64,000 bases of DNA from an uncultured archaeon (GTDB lineage: Archaea > Asgardarchaeota > Lokiarchaeia > Sigyniarchaeales > SOKP01): NCBI GenBank assembly GCA_964486045.1, contig CAZALK010000009.1, positions 32,001-96,000 on the forward strand, in the 5' to 3' direction. A program made the translations under genes and the position numbers. The first letter of the stretch is position 1. The number at the start of each line of letters is the position of its first letter. Below the pieces are notes generated by a model. It did no database searches and was not told the origin of the DNA. It saw nothing but the letters and a program-made list of their open reading frames with translations. Positions 2,525 through 19,332 of this stretch are shown in pieces.

Positions 2525-2684
2525 ATTTTTTTCATCTTTTTTACAATGTGCTCTAAAAGTGGATTATTTTACAATGATTATCTAATTTATAGTTTTTTTT
2601 TTTTAAAATTGCTTAAAAAATATATTAAAGTAATGTAAATAATAGTTTAAATATAGCGTTTAATAAGTAGGAGAGAATGGTTAG

Positions 2685-3716
2685 ATGAGGTTTAGTAGTT
2701 TATCAATGATAGGCACAACACATTTAAGGTGTACGGATTGCATTATAGCTGCTTTACTTGTTCATCCAAACTATCAAATAAATAAAAATCTTATCTATGA
2801 AGCACAAAAAATTATGTTAGGTCATAGAGGAAAATGGGCTTATGCATTTCATTTACCAAAAAAAGAGGTAAAAGAAGAATTTACGAAATGCTTACCTGAC
2901 ATAATTAAGAAGCAACAATCATCTGGATTGTGGAAAAGAAAGTATGCTAAAGTTTATACTTACGGGCTATTACGAGCATTGAAGCATGCAGAGCTTCTCG
3001 AACAAGATATTTTTCGTTATGATTTATACAAAAGTTTTCGACAGAATACAGACCTTATCAGCATCCTTGTAAGGAAAAATATCATGAACGAAAATAATGT
3101 TAACATAGAAAAGGTTGTGGCAAAATTATTCTCTAATCAACAACAGAATGGTTCTTGGTTTAATAGTCTCTCCGCAACATGTTTTCAACTACTAATTTTG
3201 AACGAATTAGGTATTAGTGCTAACCATGAATTAGTTTCCTTGGCTATCAAATGGATTTTTGATCAGTTTTATAAAACATTTGAGGGAAAAGCAAAGACTT
3301 GGACATTTGATTTTGAGAATATTTTTCTGACAGATAATTATGCTGTTGAACAAAATGGTTTTCAACAAGTTGCTCCAGAACATGGTAGAAACCCTTGCAT
3401 CGGTTCTTTACTGTCTGGTGTTGATAGTTTTATCAGGCAAAATCCTCTAATAACTACTGCTATAGCACTATATACCTTGACTAGGTTAGGATATGGAAAT
3501 GATAAAAGAATAGTAGATGCATATGACAGTCTCTATAACCTTAGAGGTATTCACCTAATTAATGGGGAGATCACAGATAACATTGGTTGGTGTACTGGTT
3601 TATATCGTCCAAAATCATTACATTATGATATAGAAAGATCAGGTGTCAGTTTTGACGATTATTTACAAGTTGTAAAGGAAAGAAAAATCAAGCAAAGAAA
3701 AAATACAATTTACTAA
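2685..3716 (+). CDS. Prenyltransferase/squalene-oxidase-repeat-like (alpha/alpha toroid) hypothetical protein
   Basis: 343-aa ORF with QW-like motifs QQSSGLW and QQQNGSW followed by helical repeats. Confidence 0.5.
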   Translation: MRFSSLSMIGTTHLRCTDCIIAALLVHPNYQINKNLIYEAQKIMLGHRGKWAYAFHLPKKEVKEEFTKCLPDIIKKQQSSGLWKRKYAKVYTYGLLRALKHAELLEQDIFRYDLYKSFRQNTDLISILVRKNIMNENNVNIEKVVAKLFSNQQQNGSWFNSLSATCFQLLILNELGISANHELVSLAIKWIFDQFYKTFEGKAKTWTFDFENIFLTDNYAVEQNGFQQVAPEHGRNPCIGSLLSGVDSFIRQNPLITTAIALYTLTRLGYGNDKRIVDAYDSLYNLRGIHLINGEITDNIGWCTGLYRPKSLHYDIERSGVSFDDYLQVVKERKIKQRKNTIY

Positions 3717-3759
3717 AAATCGTAGCTCAAATCGATGTGAAATAAATTTTTTTTTTTAA

Positions 3760-3801
3760 CATAATTCCATCCCAAAACTTTCTTTCTTTTCCATATGGAT
3801 C
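3760..3801 (-). pseudogene. C-terminal remnant of a carboxylesterase paralog
   Basis: Translates DPYGKERKFWDGIM, against DPYGKERIAWNGIM at the end of 998..2524. No upstream coding part is recognisable. Confidence 0.65.
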
Positions 3802-3919
3802 ACAATTAAATGATGAAAATATTCTTTTCGTGAGGAAAATTATTTTCACCTTTACATATGCTAATTTGAGTGATAATGAAATAGAAAATTTTCAAAAATA
3901 AAGAATTATATTCATAATA

Positions 3920-4633
3920 ATGGATACTGATAAAATATGGAAAGAAGGTGAATGGACAAGTGAAGCACGTCAGATAATTGATGGGCTTAAAAAGTTTCCT
4001 GACAATTCAAAAATAATCCTAATTTTAAGACATTCTCATCGAAATGAAGCAAAAGCATTTGAGAAAGCTCAGAAAGAAAGATTAACACCCCAAGGTCATG
4101 CAATTGCTAAGAAATTCGGCGAAAATTTACCCCGAAGCAGACCTATTAAAAACTTCTATAGCATTATATGGCGATGCGAAGAAACAGCTAAAAATATACA
4201 TGAGGGGTTTAAAAGTATTGGCGGAGCAAGTGAATTAAAGGGAGAACTTAAACCTCTCCAAGATGTTGGAATTGCTGATAGACAATTTTTTTTGAATGAA
4301 TTTACTAATGTTCCTTTTTTTGACATCTTTTATCGATGGGCAGTAGGTTTTTATAATCCTAATGTTTGGACACCGTTCATAGAATATTGTCAATCAACGG
4401 CTCATATTATTCTAGACCAAGTTAAAAGCTCTCCTGAAAATGGGTTAAACATATTTGTTTCTCATGATATGAATGTAATGGCTCTTAGATTTGGATGGTT
4501 TGCGCTTCTACCAACAAAATGGGTGAAATTCCTTGGGGGATTTGCATTCTCGATAGAAGAAGATCAAATCTTACTATTAGATAATAACGAGCTAAAACCA
4601 GTAGCAATTCCACATTGGTGGAAAAAATCATGA
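3920..4633 (+). CDS. Histidine phosphatase superfamily protein
   Basis: LILRHSHR, LTPQG, RCEETA and VSHD motifs. Confidence 0.85.
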   Translation: MDTDKIWKEGEWTSEARQIIDGLKKFPDNSKIILILRHSHRNEAKAFEKAQKERLTPQGHAIAKKFGENLPRSRPIKNFYSIIWRCEETAKNIHEGFKSIGGASELKGELKPLQDVGIADRQFFLNEFTNVPFFDIFYRWAVGFYNPNVWTPFIEYCQSTAHIILDQVKSSPENGLNIFVSHDMNVMALRFGWFALLPTKWVKFLGGFAFSIEEDQILLLDNNELKPVAIPHWWKKS

Positions 4634-4657
4634 AAACTCCAAATTGACATTACTCAA

Positions 4658-5257
4658 TTATCGCCCTAACAATTTATAAAATCGGCTTTTTTGTTCTTCT
4701 GTCATCTCAGTAAGGAGTGGTACACCGTATTCTGTATGTGGAAAATCCTTAACTTCTGGTGAATGAATAAGTCGTCTCGCGGTAATATTATGAAGTCCCT
4801 CACCATCAATCCCCATGAGTGCTTCTCCAATACCAGGTGGCCATACTGGTTTACTTTTAAACGAATTTGTTTTTCTCCCTTTTCCAACCTTAGTCAAACC
4901 ATTGTTTAATATTTCTTCCTCTATAAACCGCTTATTTTGACCTTTAAGGTCGTAGATAAAGGATGAGGCATGTGCTATTAGCGCCCACTCTACACGAGCA
5001 TGAAATCCAGGAAGTTCTAGGCATTCGTCCGGTAATGATGCTCCTCCGCTGACCTTTCCCTTGTGGATCATAAAATGCCAACCTGCTATATCACGCCCAG
5101 CCAAGAGACGTTTCGGTATGAGTGTATATTCTTCGCTAAAACCCCATTCATATTTATTGAGATCTAAATTAGCTTGTTTAATGAGTTTTACACCTGTTTC
5201 AGCAGCAAACTTGCACCACTCTAAAGACCCGAACTCCCATTTTTCAATATCATTCAT
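4658..5257 (-). CDS. Hypothetical protein
   Basis: 199-aa ORF with normal composition, divergent from the PEP-utilising enzyme; no motif recognised. Confidence 0.7.
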   Translation of the reverse strand: MNDIEKWEFGSLEWCKFAAETGVKLIKQANLDLNKYEWGFSEEYTLIPKRLLAGRDIAGWHFMIHKGKVSGGASLPDECLELPGFHARVEWALIAHASSFIYDLKGQNKRFIEEEILNNGLTKVGKGRKTNSFKSKPVWPPGIGEALMGIDGEGLHNITARRLIHSPEVKDFPHTEYGVPLLTEMTEEQKSRFYKLLGR

Positions 5258-5438
5258 ATTTTTTCTCTTCTAAGATTAAATTTGATCTTAAAATACGATA
5301 GTACTGCAAAATTCATTAAATATTTTAAATTTGCTTAAAAAATTATTTAGATATGTAGCCCTCATCCAATTCATCCAATTAAAAAAATTGAAATTGAATG
5401 TATTACTTTCCTAATTATAATTCGAATAGAGGATTAAT

Positions 5439-8267
5439 ATGACTTATAACTATATAATGCCAATTGATACGAAAACATTATCCTTAGAAATGATCGGTGG
5501 TAAAGGAAAGTCTCTAGCAAAGATGGCATCTACAGGAATGTCGGTGCCTTCAGGCTTTTATCTGACGACGTCTGCATACAAGGATTTTATAGAAAAGAAT
5601 AACCTACAAGAAGCTATCATCAATCTAGCAAAGCCTGAAATCATCGGTAGGACAATATCATTCGAATCAGCATCGAAGAATATTCAAAAGCTGATAAAAG
5701 GAGTGGAACTACCTGATGAGATTACTAATGAAATCCGGCAGGCTTACGCTGCATTGAATGGACAGAATCCCGCTGTGGCCGTGCGTTCCTCAGCCAATGC
5801 TGAAGACCTCCCAGATTTATCTTTTGCCGGGCAACAGGATACCTATTTGAACATTAGTGGTGATGAGCCACTGATAACAGCTATACGTGATTGTTGGGCG
5901 TCTCTTTGGACACCACGAGCTATCAGTTACCGGCATCAAATGGGGATTAAACAAGAAGTGGTCGCTATGGCTGTGGTGGTCCAAATCATGGTACCATCGG
6001 ACGTCTCGGGGATACTTTTTACTGCTAATCCAGTTAACGGTGAAAGATCAGAAATCATTATCAATTCAAGTTTTGGTCTAGGTGAGGCGGTAGTTGGTGG
6101 ACAAGTAACACCGGACACCTATGTGGTAGATCGGAAAACACTTACTGTAAAAGAGACTATAATTGGTCCAAAGGCGCAGAAGATTATTTCCAGTGATAAA
6201 CAAGGAACAATATTGCAAGATGTCTCTGAACATGAGCGTAGCCAGTCGTCGTTGTCAGATAATTTACTCAAGGAACTGACATCAGTTGCACTTAATGTAG
6301 AACAGATTTTCGAAGGTGTCCCTCAAGATATCGAATGGGCCATATCTAACGGTAAACTTTGGATGCTACAATCCCGCCCTATAACGAATCTTCCTCCACA
6401 GCCCATAAAGGTTATTTGGGAACCTACTCCACCAGCAAAGATTCTCGCCCGGCGTCAAATCGTAGAAAATATTCCTGACCCTTGTAGTCCGTTATTTGAT
6501 GAGCTGTATCTAACTGAAGGTTTGGAATCTCCTGCAAAAGGACAGAAGCGGAAAAGTTTCTTTGTAGGGGGTGGTCCTATGTTTGTAACAGTAAATGGTT
6601 ATGCCTATCAACGTTTTGATTTTCCACAAGTTGTAGACATACAGAAAGAAATAGACAAGGCTGAAACAGAAGAAGAAAAGGAGGACGTAATTGCAAGGAT
6701 TTGGCAACAATGGGATGATACATACGCACAAATGAGAAATAAAAGCGATTCCACGATGGAACAGCATGACTTGAACTTGTTCTTGGCAGAGATTTCATCC
6801 GAAGATTTAGAGGCATTTAATGAATGGGCCAAAAACGCAGATATCAAAGATATTGCTCATGAGGTGACCATGCCTGAAAGTAAAAATCCAACTTATACCG
6901 CCTTCAATAAGACCCAGATCAATGAGAACCAAATTAAAGGATGGAGTGAAAAAGCGATGCCCGAACTTCTAGCTACGGTGGAGGAATGGCGAAATATTGA
7001 TTATAGAACAGCATCGGATGATGATTTATTGAGAGGAATTAGTGAATTGGCTATTGCTGGGGGAAGGTACTGGGCATCGAATGCGTCGCATACTTTTGGT
7101 GTTGCAAAATCAACAGATGACCAGTTACAAGCATTTCTACGAGAAAACCTACCAGATCATCATTTCATCAGTGGTCACTTCCTGAGTGGTTTTAAATCGA
7201 AAACTTTAGAAGCCAATGAGCACATGTATAAGATTGCCAAGCAGATCCAAGCAGACGATGCGCTCTATGAATTGATGGTTACAACACCGCCTAAACAAAT
7301 GATGAATGCTCTACAAAATCACCCAAACAGTGGTTCAGTGATTAAAGCTATTGAAGATTATCTCAGGATCTATGGACACTTAGGCTACAGCTTGGATTTT
7401 GTTGAATCACTTCCAATTGAAGATCCTTCCGGGCTTCTTAGCACCTTAAAAACCATGATAACTGTCAAGGATTACAACCCAAATAAACATCAAATCGATG
7501 CTGCAGGGAAGCGTGAACAAGCGATGCAGAAGATCGAGCAGCTTCTTGATGGATTGCAGTATTGGCAGTTTCGTTATAGAAATTGGTTCACCCATCGTTT
7601 TTATTTCATCCGCGAGGAAGTTATGTTTTATCTAACTAGTGGTTGGCCAACTCTTCGAATTTTAGCTCTGGAGCTCGGACAGCGTCTTGTAGATGTTGGT
7701 ACAATTAACGCTCCTGATGATGTTTTTTATCTTGTTACCGAAGAACTGACCGAAGCCATAAACGCTCGTAAAGAGAATAAAGCGATACCAGAATATCAAC
7801 AATTAACTGCAAAACGTCGAGAGTTGAGAGAAGCACGCAAACGACTACATCCCCCAGGAACTATTCCAGAAGTAGCAAGCAATAATCCCGGTGTGGCATT
7901 CAAAGAGACACAAGCACGCAATGATCCCAACAGTGATATATTGAAAGGGATTCCGGTTAGTCCCGGCACTGTCACCAGTCCAGTTAGTTTGATTAAATCA
8001 CCAGCAGAATTTGATCAAATGCAACCAGATTCAATTTTAGTCTGTCCGATGACCAACCCCGCATGGACGCCACTATTTGCCCATGCAACCGGATTAGTAA
8101 CTGATATGGGTGGTATTCTGGGGCATGGATCCATCGTTGCGAGGGAATATGGCATCCCGGCCGTTGTGGGAACCGGCACTATTACGCAACGCGTTAAACA
8201 TGGCCAGAAGATCACAGTGGACGGTGATGCTGGTACTGTTAGTCTTATTCAAGATGAAACAATATAA
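5439..8267 (+). CDS. PEP/pyruvate-binding + swivel phospho-His domain protein (rifampin phosphotransferase-like dikinase architecture)
   Basis: GGKGKSL, AVRSSANAEDL, SFAGQQDT, QDIEWA..LQSRPIT; long central helical domain; C-terminal GGILGHGSIVAREYGIPAV. Confidence 0.88.
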   Translation: MTYNYIMPIDTKTLSLEMIGGKGKSLAKMASTGMSVPSGFYLTTSAYKDFIEKNNLQEAIINLAKPEIIGRTISFESASKNIQKLIKGVELPDEITNEIRQAYAALNGQNPAVAVRSSANAEDLPDLSFAGQQDTYLNISGDEPLITAIRDCWASLWTPRAISYRHQMGIKQEVVAMAVVVQIMVPSDVSGILFTANPVNGERSEIIINSSFGLGEAVVGGQVTPDTYVVDRKTLTVKETIIGPKAQKIISSDKQGTILQDVSEHERSQSSLSDNLLKELTSVALNVEQIFEGVPQDIEWAISNGKLWMLQSRPITNLPPQPIKVIWEPTPPAKILARRQIVENIPDPCSPLFDELYLTEGLESPAKGQKRKSFFVGGGPMFVTVNGYAYQRFDFPQVVDIQKEIDKAETEEEKEDVIARIWQQWDDTYAQMRNKSDSTMEQHDLNLFLAEISSEDLEAFNEWAKNADIKDIAHEVTMPESKNPTYTAFNKTQINENQIKGWSEKAMPELLATVEEWRNIDYRTASDDDLLRGISELAIAGGRYWASNASHTFGVAKSTDDQLQAFLRENLPDHHFISGHFLSGFKSKTLEANEHMYKIAKQIQADDALYELMVTTPPKQMMNALQNHPNSGSVIKAIEDYLRIYGHLGYSLDFVESLPIEDPSGLLSTLKTMITVKDYNPNKHQIDAAGKREQAMQKIEQLLDGLQYWQFRYRNWFTHRFYFIREEVMFYLTSGWPTLRILALELGQRLVDVGTINAPDDVFYLVTEELTEAINARKENKAIPEYQQLTAKRRELREARKRLHPPGTIPEVASNNPGVAFKETQARNDPNSDILKGIPVSPGTVTSPVSLIKSPAEFDQMQPDSILVCPMTNPAWTPLFAHATGLVTDMGGILGHGSIVAREYGIPAVVGTGTITQRVKHGQKITVDGDAGTVSLIQDETI

Positions 8268-8477: not shown

Positions 8478-10211
8478 ATGAATCGAGAGTTTAAGATTGA
8501 AAAACAGTATTTGAATTTTCCAGTTAAACAGGGAAATGAAGGGAGTTTGATACACCTAATTATTGATGGTAATGTTGTACATGAATTTGAAATTTCGCTG
8601 GCGATAACCGAACCTGATTTCTGGATTTTTCTTGATGTTTCTGAATTTAAAGGTAAAAAAGTAACTTTACAAATCATTGAGGAAAACGAAGCATTTAATA
8701 AGATTTACTTGGATGATACATTTCCGGGGGAAGAAAATCTCTACAAAGAAAAACTGCGACCTCAATTTCATTTCTCTACCCGTCGTGGATGGATCAATGA
8801 TCCCAATGGTCTGGTTTATTATGATGGTGAATATCACCTATTTTACCAGCATAATCCCTATGATTGGCATCCTGGTACTAATGAGGTTAATATAACCTGG
8901 GGCCATGCAATAAGCAAAGATCTGATACACTGGAAAGAATTGCGTGATGCCATCCATCCGGATAACCTTGGTGTAGTCTATTCTGGTTCAGCAGTTATTG
9001 ATAAGCTGAATACTACAGGCTTTCAAAGTGGTGATGAAAAACCATTAATATGTATATATACTTCCGCAGGAGGTGGAAGCCCGTTGTCAAAAGGCAAACA
9101 TTTTACACTATCAATCGCATATAGTAATGACAGGGGTAGAACTTTCACTAAATATAGTGGAAATCCTGTTCAAGAAGAAATTGAACCATATAACCGTGAT
9201 CCAAAAGTTATTTGGCATGAGCCATCAAATCAATGGGTAATCGTGTTGTACTTAGATGGAAATGTTGTGGGTTTTTTCACTTCTAAAGACCTTAAATCTT
9301 GGGAACTTCAAAGTAAATATGGAAGAAAAACTCTTTATGAATGCCCAGAACTATTCCAAATGGCCATTGATGGAAATCAACAGAACAAGAAATGGATTCT
9401 GTATGCTGCTAATGGTCGTTATGATATAGGCCAATTTAATGGGAAAAACTTTATTCCTGATACCAAAGGGATTACTTTTAACTACGGGAATTGTTTCTAT
9501 GCATCACAGACTTTCAACAATATCCCTGAAGAAGATGGTAGACGTATTCAAATAGCATGGGGAGTAAATCCCATGCCAGGTATGCCTTTTAATCAACAGA
9601 TGCTTTTTCCTGTTGAACTTACACTAAGAACTACAGAAGATGGACCTCGACTATTTGTTCAACCTATAGATGAAATTAAGAAACTTTACGGTAAGGACTG
9701 GAAATTTCAAGATAAAGTTGTTGAAGAAGGTCACCATTCAATTTTGGAAGAAAAATATGATGAGGGTCTTTATAATATCTCAGCTGAGTTTGAAATCGGG
9801 AGTGCTGAAAGATTTGGAATTTTTATCAATGATATCCAAATTACGTATGAAATCAAGGAGCAAAAGCTCTATTGTCAAGAGCGTTATGCGGAATTAAAAC
9901 CGACGGAAGGCAAAATAAAATTCAGAATACTTGTTGATCGCACAACATTGGAACTTTTCGCCAACGATGGCCAAATCTATATGCCAATCCGTACACATAT
10001 TAACATCGCAGAGATTTCTGAGCTCTATTCAAAATTCGGTACAGATTTTAATATCACAGAACTTGTTGAGCACTTTCCATATAAATTTAATTATGCAGTG
10101 TCGTACACTAAACCTGTCATCATAGGGAAAGGTGATATTATAGTTTTTAGTGAAGGAGGAATAACTAAACTTGTTAAAATGGAAGTTCACGAGCTAAATT
10201 CAATTTGGTAG
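8478..10211 (+). CDS. Glycoside hydrolase family 32 (levanase/fructan beta-fructosidase)
   Basis: WINDPNG, YSGSA, RDPKV and YECP catalytic motifs; no signal peptide. Confidence 0.93.
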   Translation: MNREFKIEKQYLNFPVKQGNEGSLIHLIIDGNVVHEFEISLAITEPDFWIFLDVSEFKGKKVTLQIIEENEAFNKIYLDDTFPGEENLYKEKLRPQFHFSTRRGWINDPNGLVYYDGEYHLFYQHNPYDWHPGTNEVNITWGHAISKDLIHWKELRDAIHPDNLGVVYSGSAVIDKLNTTGFQSGDEKPLICIYTSAGGGSPLSKGKHFTLSIAYSNDRGRTFTKYSGNPVQEEIEPYNRDPKVIWHEPSNQWVIVLYLDGNVVGFFTSKDLKSWELQSKYGRKTLYECPELFQMAIDGNQQNKKWILYAANGRYDIGQFNGKNFIPDTKGITFNYGNCFYASQTFNNIPEEDGRRIQIAWGVNPMPGMPFNQQMLFPVELTLRTTEDGPRLFVQPIDEIKKLYGKDWKFQDKVVEEGHHSILEEKYDEGLYNISAEFEIGSAERFGIFINDIQITYEIKEQKLYCQERYAELKPTEGKIKFRILVDRTTLELFANDGQIYMPIRTHINIAEISELYSKFGTDFNITELVEHFPYKFNYAVSYTKPVIIGKGDIIVFSEGGITKLVKMEVHELNSIW

Positions 10212-10295
10212 TAAATGATTAAACATATTTAGAAGTAAAGGTATTTTTTAACAAAAATTAAAAAAAAAGTGTTAATTATAAATTTTATATTTTTT

Positions 10296-12623
10296 TTACT
10301 TTTGAGCACGTTTTCTCTTTCTATTTAGCGACAAACCGATTCCTGTAAAAGTTACTATAGTAATGGATAAAACTGCTGCCATTTCATACCCTGGGATTTG
10401 GACACCAGCACCACCACCAACCGTTCCTATATATTTAACGAATCCATATCCCAATCTTGGTAATTGCCATTCAAAATCTTTATTTATTGCAAATCCCGTC
10501 AGGCTAGAAGCTATCATGATTTCCGTATAATGCCAGGTTTGAAAGTGTTTGGTCATGTTATTCCAAACTTCTTGAGCTGTAATTTTATCTACAAACCAAG
10601 TCATATCTATCCATCGATCAACAGTCGCATTATAATGAAATCCTGTGTTAGTCAGCCCTTCGAATGGAAAGATGGCATAATCAAATGCATAATCAGCAGA
10701 TCCGGGACTCCTATAGAAATATTCAGCGACTGGGCCATATTTATAGTTTAAGCTTCCCCACTCACTGGGGAGTCCGTGAGATGTGAACCATGGAACTGAT
10801 CCTATATCTTCCCCAAACAATACAGTGTAAACATCTGGTTGTATTAATAAGTTACCATCAGGTGCTCCATTTAGACCGCCCAATACCATCCCTATATCTT
10901 TAATGGAATTTCCAAATACGCTCGCCTTGTCAAAATTGCTTATATCCCAAAGGAGCTTAAATTCAAAGATTGGATTAGAATTTGCGACACTAACCCAATC
11001 TGCAGTTGCATTATTGATATCTAAACCCCTAGCAGCTATAGTTGCATTCAAGAAAGGATCATCAATGAGAGTTTGTCGTGCTATAGTGAGATCTCTGGTT
11101 GCAAGAGGTATACTTGGGTTATAGTATTCATTTGTACTCGGAAGAAAACCATCAGATCGTACCGCACGTCCTCCTTTAATAACATTAATATATGTATCAT
11201 AATCAAACGCGTAACTAAGCGCTTTCCTCATAGCTCTATTAATTCCATCAGTATAAACCCGTCCATCAACATCATCAACATCTGCCAAGTATCTCATATC
11301 CCCAAGCCAGGGAAATTGCGAGTAGGTAGCATCTGTTAAATTAACAACAGATGGACCCCAATCTGCCCAGTCTTTCCAATACGTTTCATTGATAGAATTC
11401 AATGTAATAAAATCGCGATCTAGACCAACACCCGTTTCAACGTAATTAATATCGGGATGTGCAACCATGTCAGCATAGACCAGTTGACCGTCATCAGCGG
11501 TGTAATCTATGTCTCCTGTGACCATGGCTAAATTCCTTACCTGAAATCCTGTTGTAGTTGTTATAAAGGTAGCGACAGAAATTTTTGGTACCTTGTGTAA
11601 ATCCAAAGCTTGCATGGCAGTAGAATTCCACCAGTCATCAAATCTTTCCATAGTACCTTGTCCTAGTACATCATCGTGCTCGATAAATCTGTAAGGTCCC
11701 GTACCAATCAAATGCCCAGGAAATCCTGTAGAAGGATAACCTCCGGAAACATCTGGTTGTCCAAATCCAGAGACATCTCCCAAACCCTTTATTGGTATAT
11801 CGAAATAGTCTTTATACGCGTCCATTGAAATCATAGTATGGTCATCAACGTATAGAAATACAGCACTCCAATCATTAAAGTAAACCTTAATTTTTCCTCC
11901 AGATTGTTTATCTTCTGTTATAGTCACATTTTTAATTCTGGAATATGCACCATCATAAGCCCAATCATAAAGCCAACCCCAGACTGGGTGGGCTGAGCTA
12001 GACTTAGTAGCTCCATACTCTGCATATGATGCAGGTTGTCCAATAAATTGTGATACATTCCAAGTGTCAGTTTCAAATTGTGACCAGTGTGCGGCGGGTA
12101 ACCAATAACTAAATATCGCTTTATACATCTCATCTGTCATCAAATCAGGTGTTAATTCACCAGTTAAATTTCCAGAGATTACTATATCACGATCAATATT
12201 CCATTTCGCAACCGTTGCGTTAAAATCTGATCCATCATGAAATTTAACGCCCTCTCGCAGAGTGAATTCTATTGCCCGAACACCACCTTTGTTCATAAAT
12301 GGTCCGTCTGGGTGGTAATTCATTTCATCTGGCCACGGAGTTATGGTCCAACTTGTTGCTAGCACTGGGATCATAGTGTTAAATTCACCGTCCCAATCCG
12401 TAGGCCATTGAGCTAACGGCTCAACAGTTTCAGCGCTATAAACAGCACCAGCAAATCCTGCTGAGGCGATAGCACCATCCCAACTTCCTATTGCACCGCC
12501 AGTTACTCCTATTTTGAATGCTGGTACTTGTGCAGTTGTAGGTTGAGCTATTACAGGGAAGAAAGGTAATACAAGAGAACTAAGTAAAAGTAGTAAAATT
12601 ATTTTAGTTGAAAATTTTCGAAT
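10296..12623 (-). CDS. dppA: Peptide ABC transporter substrate-binding protein (family 5) with signal peptide and C-terminal IPGY-TM-basic anchor; probable ATT start
   Basis: LREGVKFHDGSDFNA, IGTGPY, MRKALSYAFD. The frame is open 83 codons upstream of the ORF-track ATG (12374) and encodes the signal peptide IRKFSTKIILLLLLSSLVLPFFPVIAQ. GGTGA lies 7 nt before ATT 12623. Confidence 0.85.
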   Translation of the reverse strand: MRKFSTKIILLLLLSSLVLPFFPVIAQPTTAQVPAFKIGVTGGAIGSWDGAIASAGFAGAVYSAETVEPLAQWPTDWDGEFNTMIPVLATSWTITPWPDEMNYHPDGPFMNKGGVRAIEFTLREGVKFHDGSDFNATVAKWNIDRDIVISGNLTGELTPDLMTDEMYKAIFSYWLPAAHWSQFETDTWNVSQFIGQPASYAEYGATKSSSAHPVWGWLYDWAYDGAYSRIKNVTITEDKQSGGKIKVYFNDWSAVFLYVDDHTMISMDAYKDYFDIPIKGLGDVSGFGQPDVSGGYPSTGFPGHLIGTGPYRFIEHDDVLGQGTMERFDDWWNSTAMQALDLHKVPKISVATFITTTTGFQVRNLAMVTGDIDYTADDGQLVYADMVAHPDINYVETGVGLDRDFITLNSINETYWKDWADWGPSVVNLTDATYSQFPWLGDMRYLADVDDVDGRVYTDGINRAMRKALSYAFDYDTYINVIKGGRAVRSDGFLPSTNEYYNPSIPLATRDLTIARQTLIDDPFLNATIAARGLDINNATADWVSVANSNPIFEFKLLWDISNFDKASVFGNSIKDIGMVLGGLNGAPDGNLLIQPDVYTVLFGEDIGSVPWFTSHGLPSEWGSLNYKYGPVAEYFYRSPGSADYAFDYAIFPFEGLTNTGFHYNATVDRWIDMTWFVDKITAQEVWNNMTKHFQTWHYTEIMIASSLTGFAINKDFEWQLPRLGYGFVKYIGTVGGGAGVQIPGYEMAAVLSITIVTFTGIGLSLNRKRKRAQK

Positions 12624-12812
12624 TGTTTTTTCACCTTATTTTTAAAATAGAGTTTTGTTATTAAATGTTTATGATGTGAAAATATATAAATGTTTCACAT
12701 GTTCAATTGATTTTACATAATTTAGACCACAAATAGTCGCATTAACAATAAAAAGGTATAAATAGAAATTTCAATTTTTATAAGTATTAAAGTCAGAATC
12801 TACAATTAAAAT

Positions 12813-13346
12813 ATGAGAAAAAGAAGCTCTAAAATAAAAGAAAAACCCTTAATGGAAAATAGCTCAGAATTAAAGGGACATTTTCACATGGATTGGGGAA
12901 GACAAGGAACGGTTATCATTGCATACATTGCTGTTTTATTAGGCTACTTTGGAATTGTCGCAAATATAATTTTGGTAGATGATATTGGCAATTGGATCCC
13001 ATATCCTGAAATGGATCCTACGATTTTGATCTGGACCTATAAAGTATATCCGGATACGTTCTACTTACCGATTTTATTACTATTTTTAATAAGCTTTTTA
13101 TTAACTTATAAGGAAGATATTCCCCATTATGGGATAAAAGCTTCATTATGGCTAGTACCCCCATTAATAGCTGAAGGTTTTTTGTTTTATTGGATAATGT
13201 TTGGACTCTCTGCTGAGCCTTTCATTTTACAATTTGCTCATGGGGAGGGTTATTTAAATATTTTAATACTATATGGGTGTACGTTTACTGGGGGCTTAAG
13301 TGGGATGAAATTTAAACAGTTTATTAAAAAGAGAAGAAAATTTTAA
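12813..13346 (+). CDS. Membrane protein (about 4 TM), first gene of the ABC operon
   Basis: Several hydrophobic segments and a basic C-tail; 39 nt upstream of dppB. Confidence 0.75.
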   Translation: MRKRSSKIKEKPLMENSSELKGHFHMDWGRQGTVIIAYIAVLLGYFGIVANIILVDDIGNWIPYPEMDPTILIWTYKVYPDTFYLPILLLFLISFLLTYKEDIPHYGIKASLWLVPPLIAEGFLFYWIMFGLSAEPFILQFAHGEGYLNILILYGCTFTGGLSGMKFKQFIKKRRKF

Positions 13347-13385
13347 GCAAAAAGAAGTAATTATAAAAGAGAGAGGGGTAATAAA

Positions 13386-14450
13386 TTGGCTCGGAAAGCA
13401 AAAAATATGGTAAAATATATCATTAAGCGAATTCTTATCATGTTTCCGCTGTTAATACTTGCTTTAATAAGTACATGGGTTTTATCAAACCTGATGACAG
13501 TAGATCCTACACTGAATAGAGTAGGTCTTACAGATCCAGTAGTTCTTGAACTGGAGAGAAGAAGAGTTGGATATTATGACCCTTGGCTTGTTAAACTTGG
13601 TAAGTATTTAGTAAACTTTTTCACGGGAGATTGGGGTGAATCTTATATACTCAAGCCAGGAAAACCTGTCCTTACACTTATTAGGGAGATCTTTCCTAAG
13701 ACTATTGAATTGATGATAATTCCAACGATTATAGCCCCAATTATTGCTGTCAAACTTGGGACTAGTGCAGCAAGTAACAAGTATAAAAAGAAAGATACTA
13801 TTATTCGTTTTATTGCGATAATCGGAGCGGGTTTCCCAGTTTTTTGGTTTGCTACCATTATTCAAATTGGTTTTGGTGTTTATATAACCGATTTAACCAA
13901 TGGTCAAATTGATATTCCCGTTATGTTCACAAATACACTAGGATATTCCTACCCAGGCCCCATAGATGGATTTAGAACAAACTTCCGAATAATTGATGCC
14001 ATTATATACAATGATCAAGCTTTTCTATGGGACTCAATCTCACATTTGATTCTTCCGACGGTATGTATGGTTTTTGTTTCAATATCGGGGTTAACGGCAC
14101 TAACGCGCTCAAGCATGTTAGAAGTGTTAGATCAAGATTATATTAGAACTGCTCGTGCAAAAGGAGTTGAAGAAAACGATGTTATTGATAAACATGCACT
14201 TCGCAATGCCCTACTCCCATCAAGTGACAAAATCATTGGGGGTTTATTGGGAGCATTTCTAGGATCACTTTTTATTGAGACAGTTTTTGCTTACGAAGGG
14301 TTTGGGTATTATCTTGTCCAATCAATTCTTCAAGGCGATTATTTGGTCATTAATGGTTTAACGGTATTCACCGTAATATTTACTCTTATTGGAACCTTAC
14401 TCTCTGATGTAATGTATACAATTATCGATCCGAGGATAACTTATAAATAA
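13386..14450 (+). CDS. dppB: Peptide ABC transporter permease (DppB/OppB)
   Basis: YIIKRIL, RSSMLEVLDQDYIRTARAKG EAA loop, HALRNAL, IDPRI. Confidence 0.93.
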   Translation: MARKAKNMVKYIIKRILIMFPLLILALISTWVLSNLMTVDPTLNRVGLTDPVVLELERRRVGYYDPWLVKLGKYLVNFFTGDWGESYILKPGKPVLTLIREIFPKTIELMIIPTIIAPIIAVKLGTSAASNKYKKKDTIIRFIAIIGAGFPVFWFATIIQIGFGVYITDLTNGQIDIPVMFTNTLGYSYPGPIDGFRTNFRIIDAIIYNDQAFLWDSISHLILPTVCMVFVSISGLTALTRSSMLEVLDQDYIRTARAKGVEENDVIDKHALRNALLPSSDKIIGGLLGAFLGSLFIETVFAYEGFGYYLVQSILQGDYLVINGLTVFTVIFTLIGTLLSDVMYTIIDPRITYK

Positions 14451-14477
14451 AAATTAATTAAAATAATAATTTAAAAT

Positions 14478-15479
14478 ATGACTGAACAAGATATAACAAT
14501 AGAAGAAGTAGATTATACGGATTTTTCCGTAGGTGGTAAGAAGAAATGGGTAAACCTAATGAAATTTTATTTACTTCCTACTTGGCGTAATCCAGAATTC
14601 ACTGCTTATGAAAATGAAATTGAAAAAATAAAATCAAAAAGGCGGGTATTCCGTCGTCTTCTTACACCTTTAACAATTACTGGGTTATTGTTGATTTTAT
14701 TTATTGTAGTATTAGCAGTATATGGTCCTTGGTTTACCGAGATTCCGTTACAAGAATTAACATTGCCATTTGTACCTTCTGACGGAATCCCTTTCGATGA
14801 ACCGAGTCCAGAACATCCACTAGGAACAACATTGTACGGATATGATATTTATGCTCGGATAATTTGGGGTGCTAGAACTACAGTAGGAATGGCGTTTATT
14901 CCTGTAATTATAGGAACGGGAGGTGGGCTTATTTTAGGAACAATTTCAGCTTATTTTGGTGGCCCAGTTGATTATGCTATGATGCGTTTTGTTGATTTAA
15001 TGTATATATTACCAATGGGAATTTTAGGTTTTATTCTTATTCCCACGGTTGGTGAAGATTTAATGGCTATGCTTGTAATTTTTGGGATACTCGGAATTCC
15101 TGCTAACATAAGGTTTATGCGAACAATGGTTTTGCTAGTAAAAGAAATGGTTTTTGTAAAGGCAGCAAAAACAGGTGGTGCTCTTAAATTCAAAATCATG
15201 TTTAAACATATTGTACCAAACGCGATATCTCCTATAATAATTAGTGTCTTTTGGGGAGCTGCGGGTACAGTTTTAGGTTTAGCGGGGCTTGGTTTTCTTG
15301 GTTTAGGACCCCAAACAGTTGCGACTTGGGGAACTGATGTTAATTGGGGTGCCGGTCGCTTATTAACTGGTAGAGGGGCAGCAATCTGGCCAGGTATTTT
15401 TCTCGGAATAATATCTGCAGGGTTTATGTTAGTAGGAGATGGATTGAGGGACGCTTTAGATCCACGATTTCACAAATAA
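14478..15479 (+). CDS. dppC: Peptide ABC transporter permease (DppC/OppC)
   Basis: PSPEHPLGT..G.DIYARIIWGAR, FVKAAKTGG, KHIVPN, GDGLRDALDPR. Confidence 0.93.
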   Translation: MTEQDITIEEVDYTDFSVGGKKKWVNLMKFYLLPTWRNPEFTAYENEIEKIKSKRRVFRRLLTPLTITGLLLILFIVVLAVYGPWFTEIPLQELTLPFVPSDGIPFDEPSPEHPLGTTLYGYDIYARIIWGARTTVGMAFIPVIIGTGGGLILGTISAYFGGPVDYAMMRFVDLMYILPMGILGFILIPTVGEDLMAMLVIFGILGIPANIRFMRTMVLLVKEMVFVKAAKTGGALKFKIMFKHIVPNAISPIIISVFWGAAGTVLGLAGLGFLGLGPQTVATWGTDVNWGAGRLLTGRGAAIWPGIFLGIISAGFMLVGDGLRDALDPRFHK

Positions 15480-15497
15480 AAAAAGGTAGACAATAAA

Positions 15498-17495
15498 ATG
15501 AAGAATACCAAAAGGCAATTTTGGATCCCTTCAACTATTATTCTAAACATAACGTTTTTTGGGAGTTTATTAGTAATTATTTATGTGTTTCAGCTTGGAA
15601 TGTCATTAATTGAAGCTTTGATAGCAGCTATTGTCTTATATTTAAGTGCTGGCATTCTAAATAATAATCTCCGAGAGGAAGTTCGGATTTCTAAAATTGT
15701 TCACAGGTTTAGTTCGGGTGTAAGCACCTTTATAATTTTTGGGATAATACTCATTATTCGCCTTCTTTTTGAAGCTCTCGGAAATTTTTATATTTTTGAG
15801 GATTTCTATTTATTCAGATTTTTGAATACAGATGCATTTTTATTTGCCATAATGGTTACAATATTTCTACCCTTACACGCCATTTTTTTAAAGCGATTTG
15901 CAAAATACAAATTGCATGATGATGAGAATATTATCCAGAGCGAACAATTCAGAAGAGTTTATATAAAATTTATAATACTAGCATGGATCGTTGGAGCCAT
16001 CTTTTTATCAATTCCGCTCCTCAAAATTCCTATGGGAAATCCTGATATATTTAATCTTGGTTTTGTTTGGGCTATTTTTACAATCGGTTTTGCTATTATT
16101 ATAACAATCATAGTTAATAGAACTCGTTCAACTGAAACACGTATTCCAAATTTTGTGCTTAAACAAGCTATGTATACTGGTGGATTTATCTCATTTGGAA
16201 TTTGGTCTATTCAGCTTGTTATTGTTGAACTGTATTTACGGAGATTATTCAGTATCACTCTATATATTCAGGATATTCGTATTTTAATTCTAGTTGTTAA
16301 TTCTGTATATATTGCCGTTTTTTTTATTACTTTAAAGAAAATATTTAAACCTCTATCTGCTGAAAGGAGTGAGTTAAAACTTCAGAAAGCATTTGAGATA
16401 TATGAGAAAAAACAAGGTGAAGAAATAAAGGTAGTTGGAAATCAAATTCTTTTGGATGTTCAAGATCTCACGACTTATTTTTACACAGAAGAAGGAATTG
16501 TAAAAGCTGTTGAAGGTGTTTCTTTTAAAATTCATGAGGGTGAAACTCTTGGTCTTGTTGGAGAAACTGGTTGTGGAAAATCCGTAACAGCATTATCAAT
16601 TCTACAATTAGTACGCCCACCAGGAAAGATAGAAGAAGGAAAAGTCATATTTAGGGGAGAAGATTTATTTCAAAAATCGATATCTAAAGTATTGAAATAT
16701 CGTGGAAAAGATATTACCATGATTTTTCAAGATCCCCTTAATTCTCTTAATCCTGTTTTTAAAATCGGGTCTCAAATCACTGAAGTTTATCTCTTGCATA
16801 TGGAAAATGAGTTACTCGTGGAATCGTCTAAACAGAATACAAGCATTTTTGCTGTTGCCCGAGAATGGGGTGAGAAACTTTTACGAGATTTAAATATCCC
16901 CTTCCCCAATTTAGTCTTTGATCTATACCCTCATGAACTGAGTGGGGGAATGCGACAAAGGGTTCAGATCGCTATGGGTCTTGCGTGCAAACCGAAACTT
17001 TTAATCGCGGATGAGCCTACAACAGCATTGGACGTAACCATTCAAAATCAAATTCTGAAGTTAATGAAGGATCTTAAGAGTAAATTTAATACCTCAATTT
17101 TGTTTATAACACATGATCTAGGAATAATTTCTAAAATGTGTGATAGGGTTGCTGTGATGTATTCCGGTTTTATTGTCGAAAATGGGAATATTCAAAAATT
17201 ATTTATAAAACCATATCACCCTTATACTAGAAGTCTTATAGGCTCTGTTCCTGTTGTTGGGAAGAAGAAACGCCGTCTTGAAGTTATAGGAGGAACGGTT
17301 CCAAACCTGATTTATCCACCCTCTGGATGCAGATTTCATCCTCGATGCAAATACTGCTTCGAGCCTTGCGATTCAAAAATCGTAAAAAGTATAGAGGTTG
17401 AACCAGATTATTTTGTCGCATGTCATCTTTATGATCCAGAATATAAAGAATTATCAGAAATTTCTATAAAAAAAGCGGAAGAAAAAAATCATTAA
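15498..17495 (+). CDS. dppD: Peptide ABC ATPase (DppD/OppD) fused to an N-terminal ~300-aa multi-pass membrane domain
   Basis: Walker A GETGCGKS, LSGGMRQR, IADEPT, C-terminal GCRFHPRC...C...ACH; residues 1-~280 are hydrophobic helices. Confidence 0.88.
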   Translation: MKNTKRQFWIPSTIILNITFFGSLLVIIYVFQLGMSLIEALIAAIVLYLSAGILNNNLREEVRISKIVHRFSSGVSTFIIFGIILIIRLLFEALGNFYIFEDFYLFRFLNTDAFLFAIMVTIFLPLHAIFLKRFAKYKLHDDENIIQSEQFRRVYIKFIILAWIVGAIFLSIPLLKIPMGNPDIFNLGFVWAIFTIGFAIIITIIVNRTRSTETRIPNFVLKQAMYTGGFISFGIWSIQLVIVELYLRRLFSITLYIQDIRILILVVNSVYIAVFFITLKKIFKPLSAERSELKLQKAFEIYEKKQGEEIKVVGNQILLDVQDLTTYFYTEEGIVKAVEGVSFKIHEGETLGLVGETGCGKSVTALSILQLVRPPGKIEEGKVIFRGEDLFQKSISKVLKYRGKDITMIFQDPLNSLNPVFKIGSQITEVYLLHMENELLVESSKQNTSIFAVAREWGEKLLRDLNIPFPNLVFDLYPHELSGGMRQRVQIAMGLACKPKLLIADEPTTALDVTIQNQILKLMKDLKSKFNTSILFITHDLGIISKMCDRVAVMYSGFIVENGNIQKLFIKPYHPYTRSLIGSVPVVGKKKRRLEVIGGTVPNLIYPPSGCRFHPRCKYCFEPCDSKIVKSIEVEPDYFVACHLYDPEYKELSEISIKKAEEKNH

Positions 17496-17595
17496 AACTT
17501 ATTATGATAATTAATAGAACAGAAAAACTCAAAAAATTGCAGTAAAAAACGGAATTCAATCTTAAAGTGTAAAAAAAAATGGAGGATAAATCGAA

Positions 17596-19332
17596 ATGGC
17601 AGTTAATCTGACAATACTAGTTATTACCCAACTATTACTATTCTCAGTGGGATTGTTCTATATAAAATGGCATATCAACTTGAATAGATGGGATAAACCA
17701 TTTTTTTCAGCATTAATTGTAAATGGAACTTGGTTTGTTATAGGTATGGTTGTGGGATTAACCATTTATTCATTGATTGGTCAAAATCTTTTCACCGACA
17801 TTCTCATAATAATTATCAATGCTTTTATTGGATTAGGTATCTTGATAAGTATTTACAAAAATAAATGGTTAAGATCTTTAGAAATTATAGGACTAGCTCA
17901 AATCTCTTTATTCATTACTACCATTTTTATAAATTTTCTTTTTGATATTATTGATATTTTTCTAATTGAAGGTAATGATAATTTGAATTATGCAAAATTT
18001 ACTTTTGTTCTATTTTTTCTGACTTTTCTCGGTATAACGGTATTTATATTAAGTTGGGGAGACAAAATTCAATTAGTAAAGTTAAGAAGAGTAGTCGTTA
18101 TTGTCAGTGTAATACCAGGGCTTCTCTATCTCATAGCAATGTTTATATCTCAGCAGGAAAGGTTTTTTGATAATTTTATTCCAAATTTAGTAATAAGTTT
18201 TACATTTTCAATTATAACAATGGTTGGAGCTAGAATAATCGCTTATAAAACAATACCAATTCAGGAACTCAGAGAACTCCATATTTTAGAAAAAGGAGAG
18301 TCTTTGTTAAAAGTTACAAACCTTAAAGTATATTATCCTCTACTTAAAGGGGTGCTTAAAAGGCAAATTGGAGCAGTAAAAGCGGTTGATGGTGTAACAT
18401 TTGAAATTAAAACAGGTGAAACATTAGGATTAGTTGGAGAAAGCGGATGCGGGAAAACGACTGTCGCTAACGCAATTTTAGGATTAATAGAAAAAGAAGA
18501 TGGAGAAATATTATATCATGAGGAATCCGTCCCGAACGAACTTACAAGTTATTTAAGGCAAAAAATTCAAATGGTTTTCCAAGATCCTGATGCATCTTTA
18601 AATCCACGTTTAAAAGTTACTGATATTATAGCAGAACCCCTCAAGAATTTACTTGGTATTACCAATAAACTGTCAATCAGAAGATATGTATTGAGATTGT
18701 TGAAACAGGTTTCATTAAAACGAGAACACATGGATCGTTACCCTCACGAGTTTTCAGGTGGACAAAAGCAAAGAATTATTATCGCAAGAGCACTTGCTTG
18801 TAATCCAGAATTAATCGTTCTTGATGAGCCGACATCAGCTCTAGATGTGTCTGTACAAGCACAAATTTTAAACCTAATTTTAGATTTACAGGAGGAATAT
18901 GGATACGGTTTTTTGTTTATAACACATAATTTATCCGTTGTGAATCATATTGCGGATAGAGTTGCTGTAATGTATCTCGGTAAGTTTGTTGAGATTGGGG
19001 AAACTGATCAAATTTTTTCAAATCCAGCTCATCCTTATACTCAAGCACTCCTAAAAAGTCGCTCTGAAATTGATCCTTTTGATCAAGATATTAAATATGT
19101 TATAGATGGCGAAGTTCCGAGCCCGATTGCTCCCCCACCAGGATGTACTTTTAATCCTCGATGTGTATCAGATAATCGAACACCAGAATGTGAAATTGAG
19201 ACTCCCCATCAAATAAAAATCGAGGAAGGTCATTATATCTGGTGCGTCAATCCACCAAAGGGAGTAGAGGACATAGAAGAAACTGAGTTATTTACTAGTA
19301 AAATTGAAGAAGAAGCTTATAGAAATCCATAA
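17596..19332 (+). CDS. dppF: Peptide ABC ATPase (DppF/OppF) fused to an N-terminal ~220-aa multi-pass membrane domain
   Basis: GESGCGKT, FSGGQKQR, VLDEPT, GCTFNPRC; hydrophobic N-terminus. Confidence 0.88.
   Translation: MAVNLTILVITQLLLFSVGLFYIKWHINLNRWDKPFFSALIVNGTWFVIGMVVGLTIYSLIGQNLFTDILIIIINAFIGLGILISIYKNKWLRSLEIIGLAQISLFITTIFINFLFDIIDIFLIEGNDNLNYAKFTFVLFFLTFLGITVFILSWGDKIQLVKLRRVVVIVSVIPGLLYLIAMFISQQERFFDNFIPNLVISFTFSIITMVGARIIAYKTIPIQELRELHILEKGESLLKVTNLKVYYPLLKGVLKRQIGAVKAVDGVTFEIKTGETLGLVGESGCGKTTVANAILGLIEKEDGEILYHEESVPNELTSYLRQKIQMVFQDPDASLNPRLKVTDIIAEPLKNLLGITNKLSIRRYVLRLLKQVSLKREHMDRYPHEFSGGQKQRIIIARALACNPELIVLDEPTSALDVSVQAQILNLILDLQEEYGYGFLFITHNLSVVNHIADRVAVMYLGKFVEIGETDQIFSNPAHPYTQALLKSRSEIDPFDQDIKYVIDGEVPSPIAPPPGCTFNPRCVSDNRTPECEIETPHQIKIEEGHYIWCVNPPKGVEDIEETELFTSKIEEEAYRNP

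Follow-up and report, generated by a model that had tools for sequence, protein, structure and literature searches.

The window analysed here is a stretch of 64,000 nucleotides from an uncultured archaeon of the lineage Asgardarchaeota; Lokiarchaeia; Sigyniarchaeales; SOKP01 (assembly GCA_964486045.1, contig CAZALK010000009.1, positions 32,001 to 96,000 of the forward strand). Here we describe an ATP-binding cassette (ABC) importer of the Opp/Dpp type encoded in this window, in which both ATPases begin with a large multi-pass membrane domain. Few membrane machines are understood as well as the type I ABC importers, whose ATPases are described in textbooks as soluble peripheral subunits. According to the list of open reading frames (ORFs), the locus spans 10296-19332 and consists of a divergent gene for the substrate-binding protein (SBP) and a plus-strand operon of five genes separated by gaps of 18-100 nt. 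The operon is headed by a 177-aa membrane protein (p177; 12813-13346, +) and continues with a DppB/OppB-like permease of 354 aa (13386-14450, +; PF00528, E=5e-35; EAA loop IRTARAKG at residue 256), a DppC/OppC-like permease of 333 aa (14478-15479, +; PF00528, E=2e-26; EAA loop VKAAKTGG at residue 229), an OppD-like ATPase of 665 aa (15498-17495, +) and an OppF-like ATPase of 578 aa (17596-19332, +), each of the two ATPases in a single ORF. The SBP is a family-5 protein of 775 aa (10296-12623, −; PF00496, E=7e-24) with a Sec-type signal peptide, an ATT start and a C-terminal anchor. A sequence-only reading of this DNA had proposed two continuous ATPase frames with N-terminal multi-pass domains of about 8 and 6-7 transmembrane (TM) helices, next to a DppB, a DppC and a leading 177-aa membrane protein. 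The two fused frames were confirmed by the ORF list, hydropathy and AlphaFold2 (AF2), and the helix numbers came out at 8 for OppD and 7 for OppF by hydropathy, AF2 and positive-inside counts; the permeases were verified by their BPD_transp_1 domains and EAA loops, and the leading protein has four helices.

Both ATPases divide into a membrane part and a nucleotide-binding domain (NBD). In the OppD-like protein (OppD-665) the N-terminal membrane domain, delimited by hydropathy and AF2, covers residues 1-316 (15498-16445, +) and is followed by an OppD-type NBD with an oligo_HPY tail (16446-17495, +; PF00005, PF08352; NF007010 OppD, E=6e-97). In the OppF-like protein (OppF-578) the membrane domain, delimited in the same way, covers residues 1-235 (17596-18300, +), followed by an OppF/DppF-type NBD with an oligo_HPY tail (18301-19332, +; PF00005, PF08352; NF008453, E=3e-109). 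The NCBIfam OppD and DppF matches of both ATPases fall under the equivalog cut-offs. Matches to ABC_tran and oligo_HPY in Pfam and NCBIfam are confined to residues ~318-645 of OppD-665 and ~232-551 of OppF-578, and the N-terminal ~310 and ~230 residues, as well as p177, have no match in either database.

Helix counts and topology were derived from hydropathy and positive-inside counts on family alignments, and single N-terminal domains (N-domains) were modelled with AF2. The OppD N-domain holds 8 helices in its first ~290 residues. Its conserved core consists of 7 helices with the N-terminus outside and the C-terminus inside, and the extra N-terminal helix, found in the window protein and its closest orthologue, lies outside this core. 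A long charged helical linker connects the last membrane helix directly to the NBD. The OppF N-domain holds 7 helices in its first ~220 residues, also predicted to run from an outer N-terminus to an inner C-terminus, and both termini of the four-helix p177 are predicted to lie inside. The AF2 models reached a predicted local distance difference test score (pLDDT) of 79 and a predicted template modelling score (pTM) of 0.68 for OppD, and 76 and 0.67 for OppF. Together the three modules add ~19 membrane helices to the 12 of DppB/DppC. Conservation in the OppD N-domain peaks in TM7-loop-TM8 (GGFISFGIWSIQL..ELYL..QDIR), and D183, T203, N207, Q239, E244, Q258, D259 and R261 are invariant in the family alignment. 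In the OppF N-domain the peak is the cytoplasmic loop GDKIQLVKLRR, and the alignment and topology counts place the invariant loop of p177, EDIPHYGIKASLW, in the cytoplasm as well. The conserved polar residues and the cytoplasmic loops of OppF and p177 probably reflect selection on specific surfaces. Neither N-domain contains a cysteine or an EAA-type motif.

The sequence-only reading had found no obvious similarity between the two N-domains, which was borne out: they are unrelated by BLASTP (E=7) and by hhalign (probability 0.1%). The same hhalign probability led us to reject an internal duplication, or homology among the two N-domains and p177. When both N-domain models were compared with the PDB by Foldseek, no match was found at E<=0.001, and the best template modelling scores (TM-scores) were ~0.3 or lower. 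Several known identities were considered and rejected. Matches to MFS_1 occur in 3 of 11 homologues of the OppD N-domain at 9-23 bits, against a Pfam cut-off of 33.4, and the window protein itself is unmatched. The half-transporters of ABC exporters (PF00664/ABC2) have no Pfam or NCBIfam match to the N-domains; the Foldseek matches of an N-domain to MsbA, PCAT1 and ABCD3 have E=7-10 and TM-scores of ~0.23. The archaeosortase/exosortase family (PF09721) was rejected for the N-domains and for p177, as it has no match in the genome and the N-domains have no cysteines. Homology to the TMD0 of TAP and ABCC proteins was likewise rejected, no such match being found by Foldseek against the PDB. The 342 homologues of p177 come from Asgard metagenomes and are all labelled hypothetical. 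Membrane-domain OppD/OppF proteins are not described in the full-text literature searched, with subscription journals outside its coverage. The literature covered includes an Asgard transportome survey (PMC7997004) and a structure paper on E. coli DppABCDF (PMC12136057), and no such design was found there. The proposal of an undescribed architecture with membrane-tethered NBDs stands, given that no described family, fold or publication was found, and the check for an already described NBD fusion that matches the N-domains (Pfam, NCBIfam, Foldseek against the PDB) returned none.

In contrast to the N-domains, the remainder of the importer is conventional. Walker A, Q-loop, signature, Walker B and H-loop are all intact in OppD-665 and OppF-578. 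The four cysteines in the tail of OppD-665 (611, 617, 624 and 642) are spaced identically to Cys 284/290/297/315 of E. coli DppD, which are ligands of a [4Fe-4S] cluster (PMC12136057). The tail of OppF-578 also has four (517, 523, 532 and 550) with slightly different spacing. Both tails appear to be of the iron-sulfur (Fe-S) type, with cluster binding itself putative. The DppB-like protein matches NCBIfam models of the OppB/NikB/DppB type, all under the curated cut-offs, and the OppC_N match of the DppC-like protein is sub-threshold (20 bits against a cut-off of 23.9). Because the ATPase motifs, cysteine tails and EAA loops are intact, we regard the core as a canonical Opp/Dpp-type importer.

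The system is a lineage-specific variant of the Opp/Dpp (PepT; Transporter Classification, TC, 3.A.1.5) type I ABC importer. It has the family-5 SBP, two BPD_transp_1 permeases, two oligo_HPY ATPases and a four-Cys site of this class; we file it as a variant because its ATPases are not soluble peripheral subunits of ~330 aa but measure 665 and 578 aa and begin with 8 and 7 membrane helices. E. coli DppABCDF and M. tuberculosis OppABCD and DppABCD share with it the family-5 SBP, the permeases with EAA loops, the oligo_HPY ATPases and the cysteine spacing (PMC12136057). The ATPases of these known systems are soluble and of ~330 aa, with two NBDs fused in M. tuberculosis, whereas here domains of 7-8 helices stand in front. 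Compared with these Dpp/Opp systems, the additional four-helix operon protein belongs to the Asgard system only. Long forms of OppD and OppF also exist in Mycoplasma (NF043079 and NF043078, profiles of 561 and 649 positions) and are likewise much longer than 330 aa. The window ATPases match these models in two separate pieces, for which reason the extra length in Mycoplasma appears to lie within the NBD. The long Mycoplasma forms carry insertions and are not known to have N-terminal membrane domains. Similar insertions occur in sister operons of the window's lineage.

The fusions are widely repeated among relatives. Searches with the N-domain alone returned 144 protein clusters for OppD and 65 for OppF, derived from many independent metagenome studies, and all of them carry ABC_tran except three short entries (319-381 aa) without a domain on record. 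A profile search with the OppD N-domain gave only 53 clusters among 1.84 billion representatives, whose complete members measure 645-1008 aa; the short matches that were sampled (~250-300 aa) are fragments, because they end inside the NBD or inside the second membrane region of a ~1000-aa type. No complete stand-alone N-domain protein was present among the homologues found. Split orthologues, which the sequence-only reading had named as the observation that would undo its claim, were looked for and not found: every complete homologue carries membrane domain and ATPase in a single frame. The N-domains are 30-80% identical among relatives, and an open frame of 310 codons is not expected by chance in DNA of 32-35% G+C. 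Neither boundary between N-domain and NBD has a Shine-Dalgarno-like site with an in-frame start, and this led us to reject an internal start from which the NBDs would be translated separately.

The N-domains have also been rearranged as modules. Comparison with hidden Markov models (HMMs) of the N-domains showed that short OppF forms (432-487 aa) retain just the C-terminal half of the OppF domain. In OppD forms of ~1000 aa, the HMMs trace the OppD domain, a partial OppD repeat, the N-terminal half of the OppF domain, the last OppD hairpin and the NBD. The window genome itself has a paralogous operon with a composite OppD of 1008 aa and an OppF of 585 aa (locus L006; contig 19: 48000-66000). 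Downstream in that locus lies an ORF of 961 aa (2680-5565, −) with no Pfam match. In another operon (L029) the ~1000-aa OppD form is paired with an OppF that holds the C-terminal half only, so the half-domain of OppF has moved between two polypeptides. This constitutes Rosetta-stone-type evidence, from which the two N-domains probably belong to one assembly, and it suggests that, of all the parts, the last OppD hairpin with its linker has to sit next to the NBD.

A p177-like gene, 25-35% identical, also heads sister operons. In those of the organism's own family the ATPases are soluble: OppD measures ~420 aa with a long charged insertion, and OppF 342-596 aa, with 1-3 hydrophobic segments between Walker A and Q-loop in several cases. 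One such operon lies in the window genome (L018; contig 15: 76000-90000), where OppF (9842-11188) has one hydrophobic segment in this position; hydrophobic insertions of OppF are likewise seen in L041, L043, L044, L046 and L048. Such an insertion may attach the ATPase to the membrane by a second route, independent of the N-domains. In the sister family, p177 operons encode divergent membrane-domain ATPases of 663-672 and 454-484 aa. Since p177-like genes also head operons with soluble ATPases, p177 looks like a general lineage-specific accessory subunit of Opp-type systems, and the N-domains look like an addition in one branch of these importers.

Among 301 genomes of the phylum, 21 have the OppD domain and 22 the OppF domain, largely the same genomes. 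N-domains occur in 19 of the 68 sampled genomes of the own family, and the sister family and one further family gave a single match each. Relatives of p177 are more widespread, with 57 genomes that include 53/68 of the own family and 3/7 of the sister family. In other Asgard families, Opp-type ATPase frames measure 316-450 aa, with one of 524 aa, among the 150 matches listed. The 37 loci collected from species-representative genomes all belong to Asgard metagenome-assembled genomes, most of which are named Promethearchaeia or Promethearchaeota. The gene order p177-DppB-DppC-TM-OppD-TM-OppF (TM marking the membrane domains) with a divergent SBP gene was found in 21 operons from 15 genomes. The p177 gene heads 19 of the 21, directly upstream in most and beyond the SBP gene in others; in the other two it is absent from the stretch examined, one of these contigs being too short to tell. 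The window genome has three Opp-type systems, those in the window and on contig 19 with membrane-domain ATPases and that on contig 15 with soluble ones. Copies of the OppF- or OppD-type N-domains that are interrupted by several stops (G049:C50:10737-11186, G264:C93:1223-1801, G270:C255:9142-9591 and G264:C126:109533-110444) are apparently decaying paralogues, which points to turnover of these operons within genomes.

The frame of the SBP gene is open upstream of the listed ATG as far as 12623, giving the full length of 775 aa. At 12621-12623 (−) it has ATT where the three closest orthologues have ATG, in an otherwise identical context (aaaaaaca ATG/ATT CGA AAA TTT TCA ACT AAA). The sequence GGTGA precedes the ATT by 7 nt, and for a further 83 codons the frame offers none of the starts ATG, GTG and TTG. 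Either the protein is initiated at ATT or the gene is weakened. This is the only start-codon anomaly of the locus. In two orthologous loci, L013 (G252:C14) and L014 (G225:C67), the conserved first helix of the OppD core (LNYG.A.IES...) is encoded in frame but ahead of any canonical start (ATG, GTG or TTG), which, as with the SBP, hints at non-canonical start codons in the lineage.

At its C-terminus (10299-10403, −) the SBP carries IPGY, a hydrophobic helix delimited by hydropathy and the K/R-rich tail RKRKRAQK, a tripartite design like that of Loki-CTERM. The SBPs next to membrane-domain ATPases, 18 from the own family and one from the sister family, measure 619-850 aa, and all 19 have a cleavable-type signal peptide and IPG[FY] or LIPGxP followed by a hydrophobic helix and a K/R tail. 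Those of operons with soluble ATPases measure 558-637 aa where complete, none has the C-terminal helix, and where the N-terminus falls inside the locus they have an N-terminal anchor only. A C-anchored SBP going with membrane-domain ATPases and an N-anchored one with soluble ATPases is a suggestive association that reflects very few independent events. Against the NCBIfam Loki-CTERM model NF033507 the tails score 13.2-18.5 bits; they resemble Loki-CTERM, and since these scores are under the cut-off of 19.9 we treat them as a probable distinct variant. A genome-wide Loki-CTERM search returned 38 matches, of which ~30 exceed the cut-off, but did not return the SBPs; ORFs of the window genome with this signal lie, for example, at contig 24:45149-45223 and contig 13:42005-42085. 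The window genome is 99% complete, yet no match to the exosortase/archaeosortase family (PF09721) was found in it. The term 'Loki-CTERM' was not found in the full-text literature searched, of the coverage given above.

The large SBP with a C-terminal anchor that the sequence-only reading had singled out is present (775 aa, IPGY-helix-basic), but the anchor is not unusual in itself, because it is the normal form of archaeal Opp-class SBPs (PMC3387779). Crenarchaeal Opp-class transporters, as in S. solfataricus and A. pernix, usually have C-terminal anchors, and their SBPs share with the Asgard ones a signal peptide of the signal peptidase I (SPase I) type and a C-terminal TM anchor (PMC3387779). 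In P. syntrophicum, a cultured Asgard archaeon, the most abundant protein is the family-5 SBP DSAG12_03090 (PMC11284389). Its identity with the SBP of the sister-family locus L039 was considered and rejected, as the glycosites N157, N398, N474 and N483 fit the sequons at no offset.

The SBP gene is adjoined in the window by a gene for a GH32 glycoside hydrolase of 577 aa (8478-10211, +; PF00251, E=2e-61; PF08244), with no hydrophobic N-terminus evident in the sequence. Copies of 68-77% identity adjoin the operons of the three closest orthologues, arranged in either of two ways (L019:488-2254, L020:11310-13043 and L021:12650-13000). Opp-class systems of archaea and thermophiles often import oligosaccharides, and the import of oligosaccharides by some Crenarchaeal Opp-class systems fits this neighbour. 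The designation as a peptide importer, as it was first proposed, is therefore unproven, with a glycosidase as the conserved neighbour of the closest orthologues; what this GH32-linked group imports may instead be a fructan-derived oligosaccharide. The link warns against the default reading of Opp-type operons as peptide uptake in metabolic reconstructions of Asgard archaea.

For the role of the N-domains and p177, we give an even chance to the reading that they are accessory membrane modules around a canonical type I core, which fix the ATPases in the membrane as integral subunits and serve the complex as a scaffold. The C-anchored SBP would pass its substrate to the DppB/DppC heterodimer, whose EAA loops would couple to a catalytically intact OppD/OppF heterodimer with Fe-S-type cysteine tails. 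The two N-domains and p177 would be non-translocating; the N-domains would turn the ATPases into permanent integral subunits, and the three modules would form an outer scaffold around the 12-helix core, in a role comparable to that of TMD0 in exporters. TMD0 takes no part in translocation itself; its role is in docking or assembly. It too is an extra N-terminal membrane domain in ABC exporters (TAP1/TAP2, SUR1, MRP1), and the analogy is one of role only, as TMD0 precedes the core transmembrane domain of type IV exporters while in the Asgard type I importer the additional domain stands in front of the NBD.

The two N-domains may act jointly in one complex, to which both their occurrence in largely the same genomes and the moved half-domain point. 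In a distance-matrix comparison of 11 related operons, corrected for NBD divergence, the top residual correlation was that between the OppD and OppF N-domains (r=0.68), followed by 0.53-0.55 for the N-domains with the SBP and 0.36 for the SBP tail with the OppD domain; the SBP tail with DppB, DppC and p177 gave <=0.16. This is a hint only, because fast-evolving parts share non-linear residuals. Several points weigh against the accessory-module reading. The co-variation is confounded by rate and comes from only 11 related operons, the contacts of the modules with the core or with each other are putative, the AF2 models, at pLDDT 76-79, are moderately confident, and a known fold may have escaped the fold comparison, which was Foldseek against the PDB. 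Invariant polar residues of OppD that lie within helices or at their ends (N207, Q239, E244, D259 and R261) exceed the needs of a passive anchor. Sister operons pair p177-like proteins with soluble ATPases, so transporters of this class can work without tethering.

The association of SBP tails with membrane-domain ATPases allows another explanation, that the N-domains, with or without p177, form a membrane receptor for the C-terminal IPG[FY]-helix-basic anchor and so hold the SBP on its translocator in cells that lack a periplasm, a function like that of the fused binding domains of OpuA or GlnPQ. We consider this possible, on the doubtful side. All 19 SBPs beside membrane-domain ATPase pairs have the signal peptide and C-terminal tail, those of soluble-ATPase sister operons with an N-terminus in the locus are N-anchored only and have no C-terminal helix, and the tails, sub-threshold for Loki-CTERM, appear to be a variant of their own. 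A charged invariant cluster of the OppD domain (D183, E244, Q258, D259 and R261) is predicted at the outer membrane face, and among the residual correlations of the SBP tail that with the OppD domain stands out from those with DppB, DppC and p177. This correlation is, however, weak and rate-confounded, and behind the association stand one or two events in evolution and not ~30 independent ones. Another objection is that Crenarchaeal Opp-class SBPs are C-anchored (PMC3387779) beside ATPases that are, to our knowledge, soluble. These Crenarchaeal systems are not known to have a p177-like gene. Importers of the OpuA/GlnPQ type keep the SBP at the translocator without a periplasm through covalent fusion to the permease; an Asgard tether, if there is one, would instead be non-covalent, via putative membrane-helix contacts. 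In a proteomic study of one cultured Lokiarchaeial species, no S-layer protein was found. If docking were true, Lokiarchaeia would hold each SBP on its own translocator by helix-helix recognition, a previously unknown assembly mode for binding-protein-dependent importers, and it would hint at how Loki-CTERM-type tails are read where no archaeosortase is found.

The invariant polar residues within helices and the conserved helical linker that runs straight into the NBD are also compatible with a regulatory sensor, in which the membrane domains would perceive a membrane or extracellular signal (lipid state, potential or ligand) and use the linker to control ATP hydrolysis. In the OppF domain and in p177 the best-conserved loops are cytoplasmic, on the NBD side, and the C-terminal regulatory domains of MalK, MetN and OpuA have an analogous role. 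Against this, the domains show no similarity to any known sensor domain (Pfam, NCBIfam, Foldseek against the PDB), a sensor built from a third protein and two unrelated domains, one on each ATPase, would be unusual, and no regulator gene is conserved among the 21 operons. We regard such a sensor as improbable.

A second substrate path, the least likely of the roles that the sequence-only reading had raised, would have the N-domains form an extra translocation route or act as exporter-type half-transporters inside an importer operon. The length of ~580-665 aa and the order of membrane domain and NBD mimic half-transporters, some fragments are automatically annotated as 'fused ATPase/permease', and a few OppD-domain homologues match MFS_1 weakly. 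These MFS_1 matches come from a minority of members and stay far under the Pfam cut-off, and the Foldseek TM-scores are as low as stated above. The two domains are unrelated and of different size, with no match to ABC_membrane or ABC2; the permeases with canonical EAA loops are present, and the OppD/OppF-class NBDs with oligo_HPY are the sole ATPases available to DppB/DppC in every operon, all of which makes a second path very improbable. An artefact, in which ATPases that are truly soluble would look fused through a misplaced start, a faulty assembly or the loss of a stop codon, can be practically discounted, being refuted by the same single frames in independent assemblies of many studies, by N-domains conserved at 30-80% identity and by boundaries that lack an internal ribosome-binding site and start.

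The importer defines three uncharacterised membrane protein families, the OppD N-domain, the OppF N-domain and p177, whose clear genomic context makes them tractable for structure prediction of the complex, cryo-electron microscopy and heterologous expression. The design has long been kept in a lineage that is studied for its relation to eukaryotes, and it means that either a classic transporter is assembled or regulated in a new manner, or SBPs are tethered by a new means in wall-less archaea.

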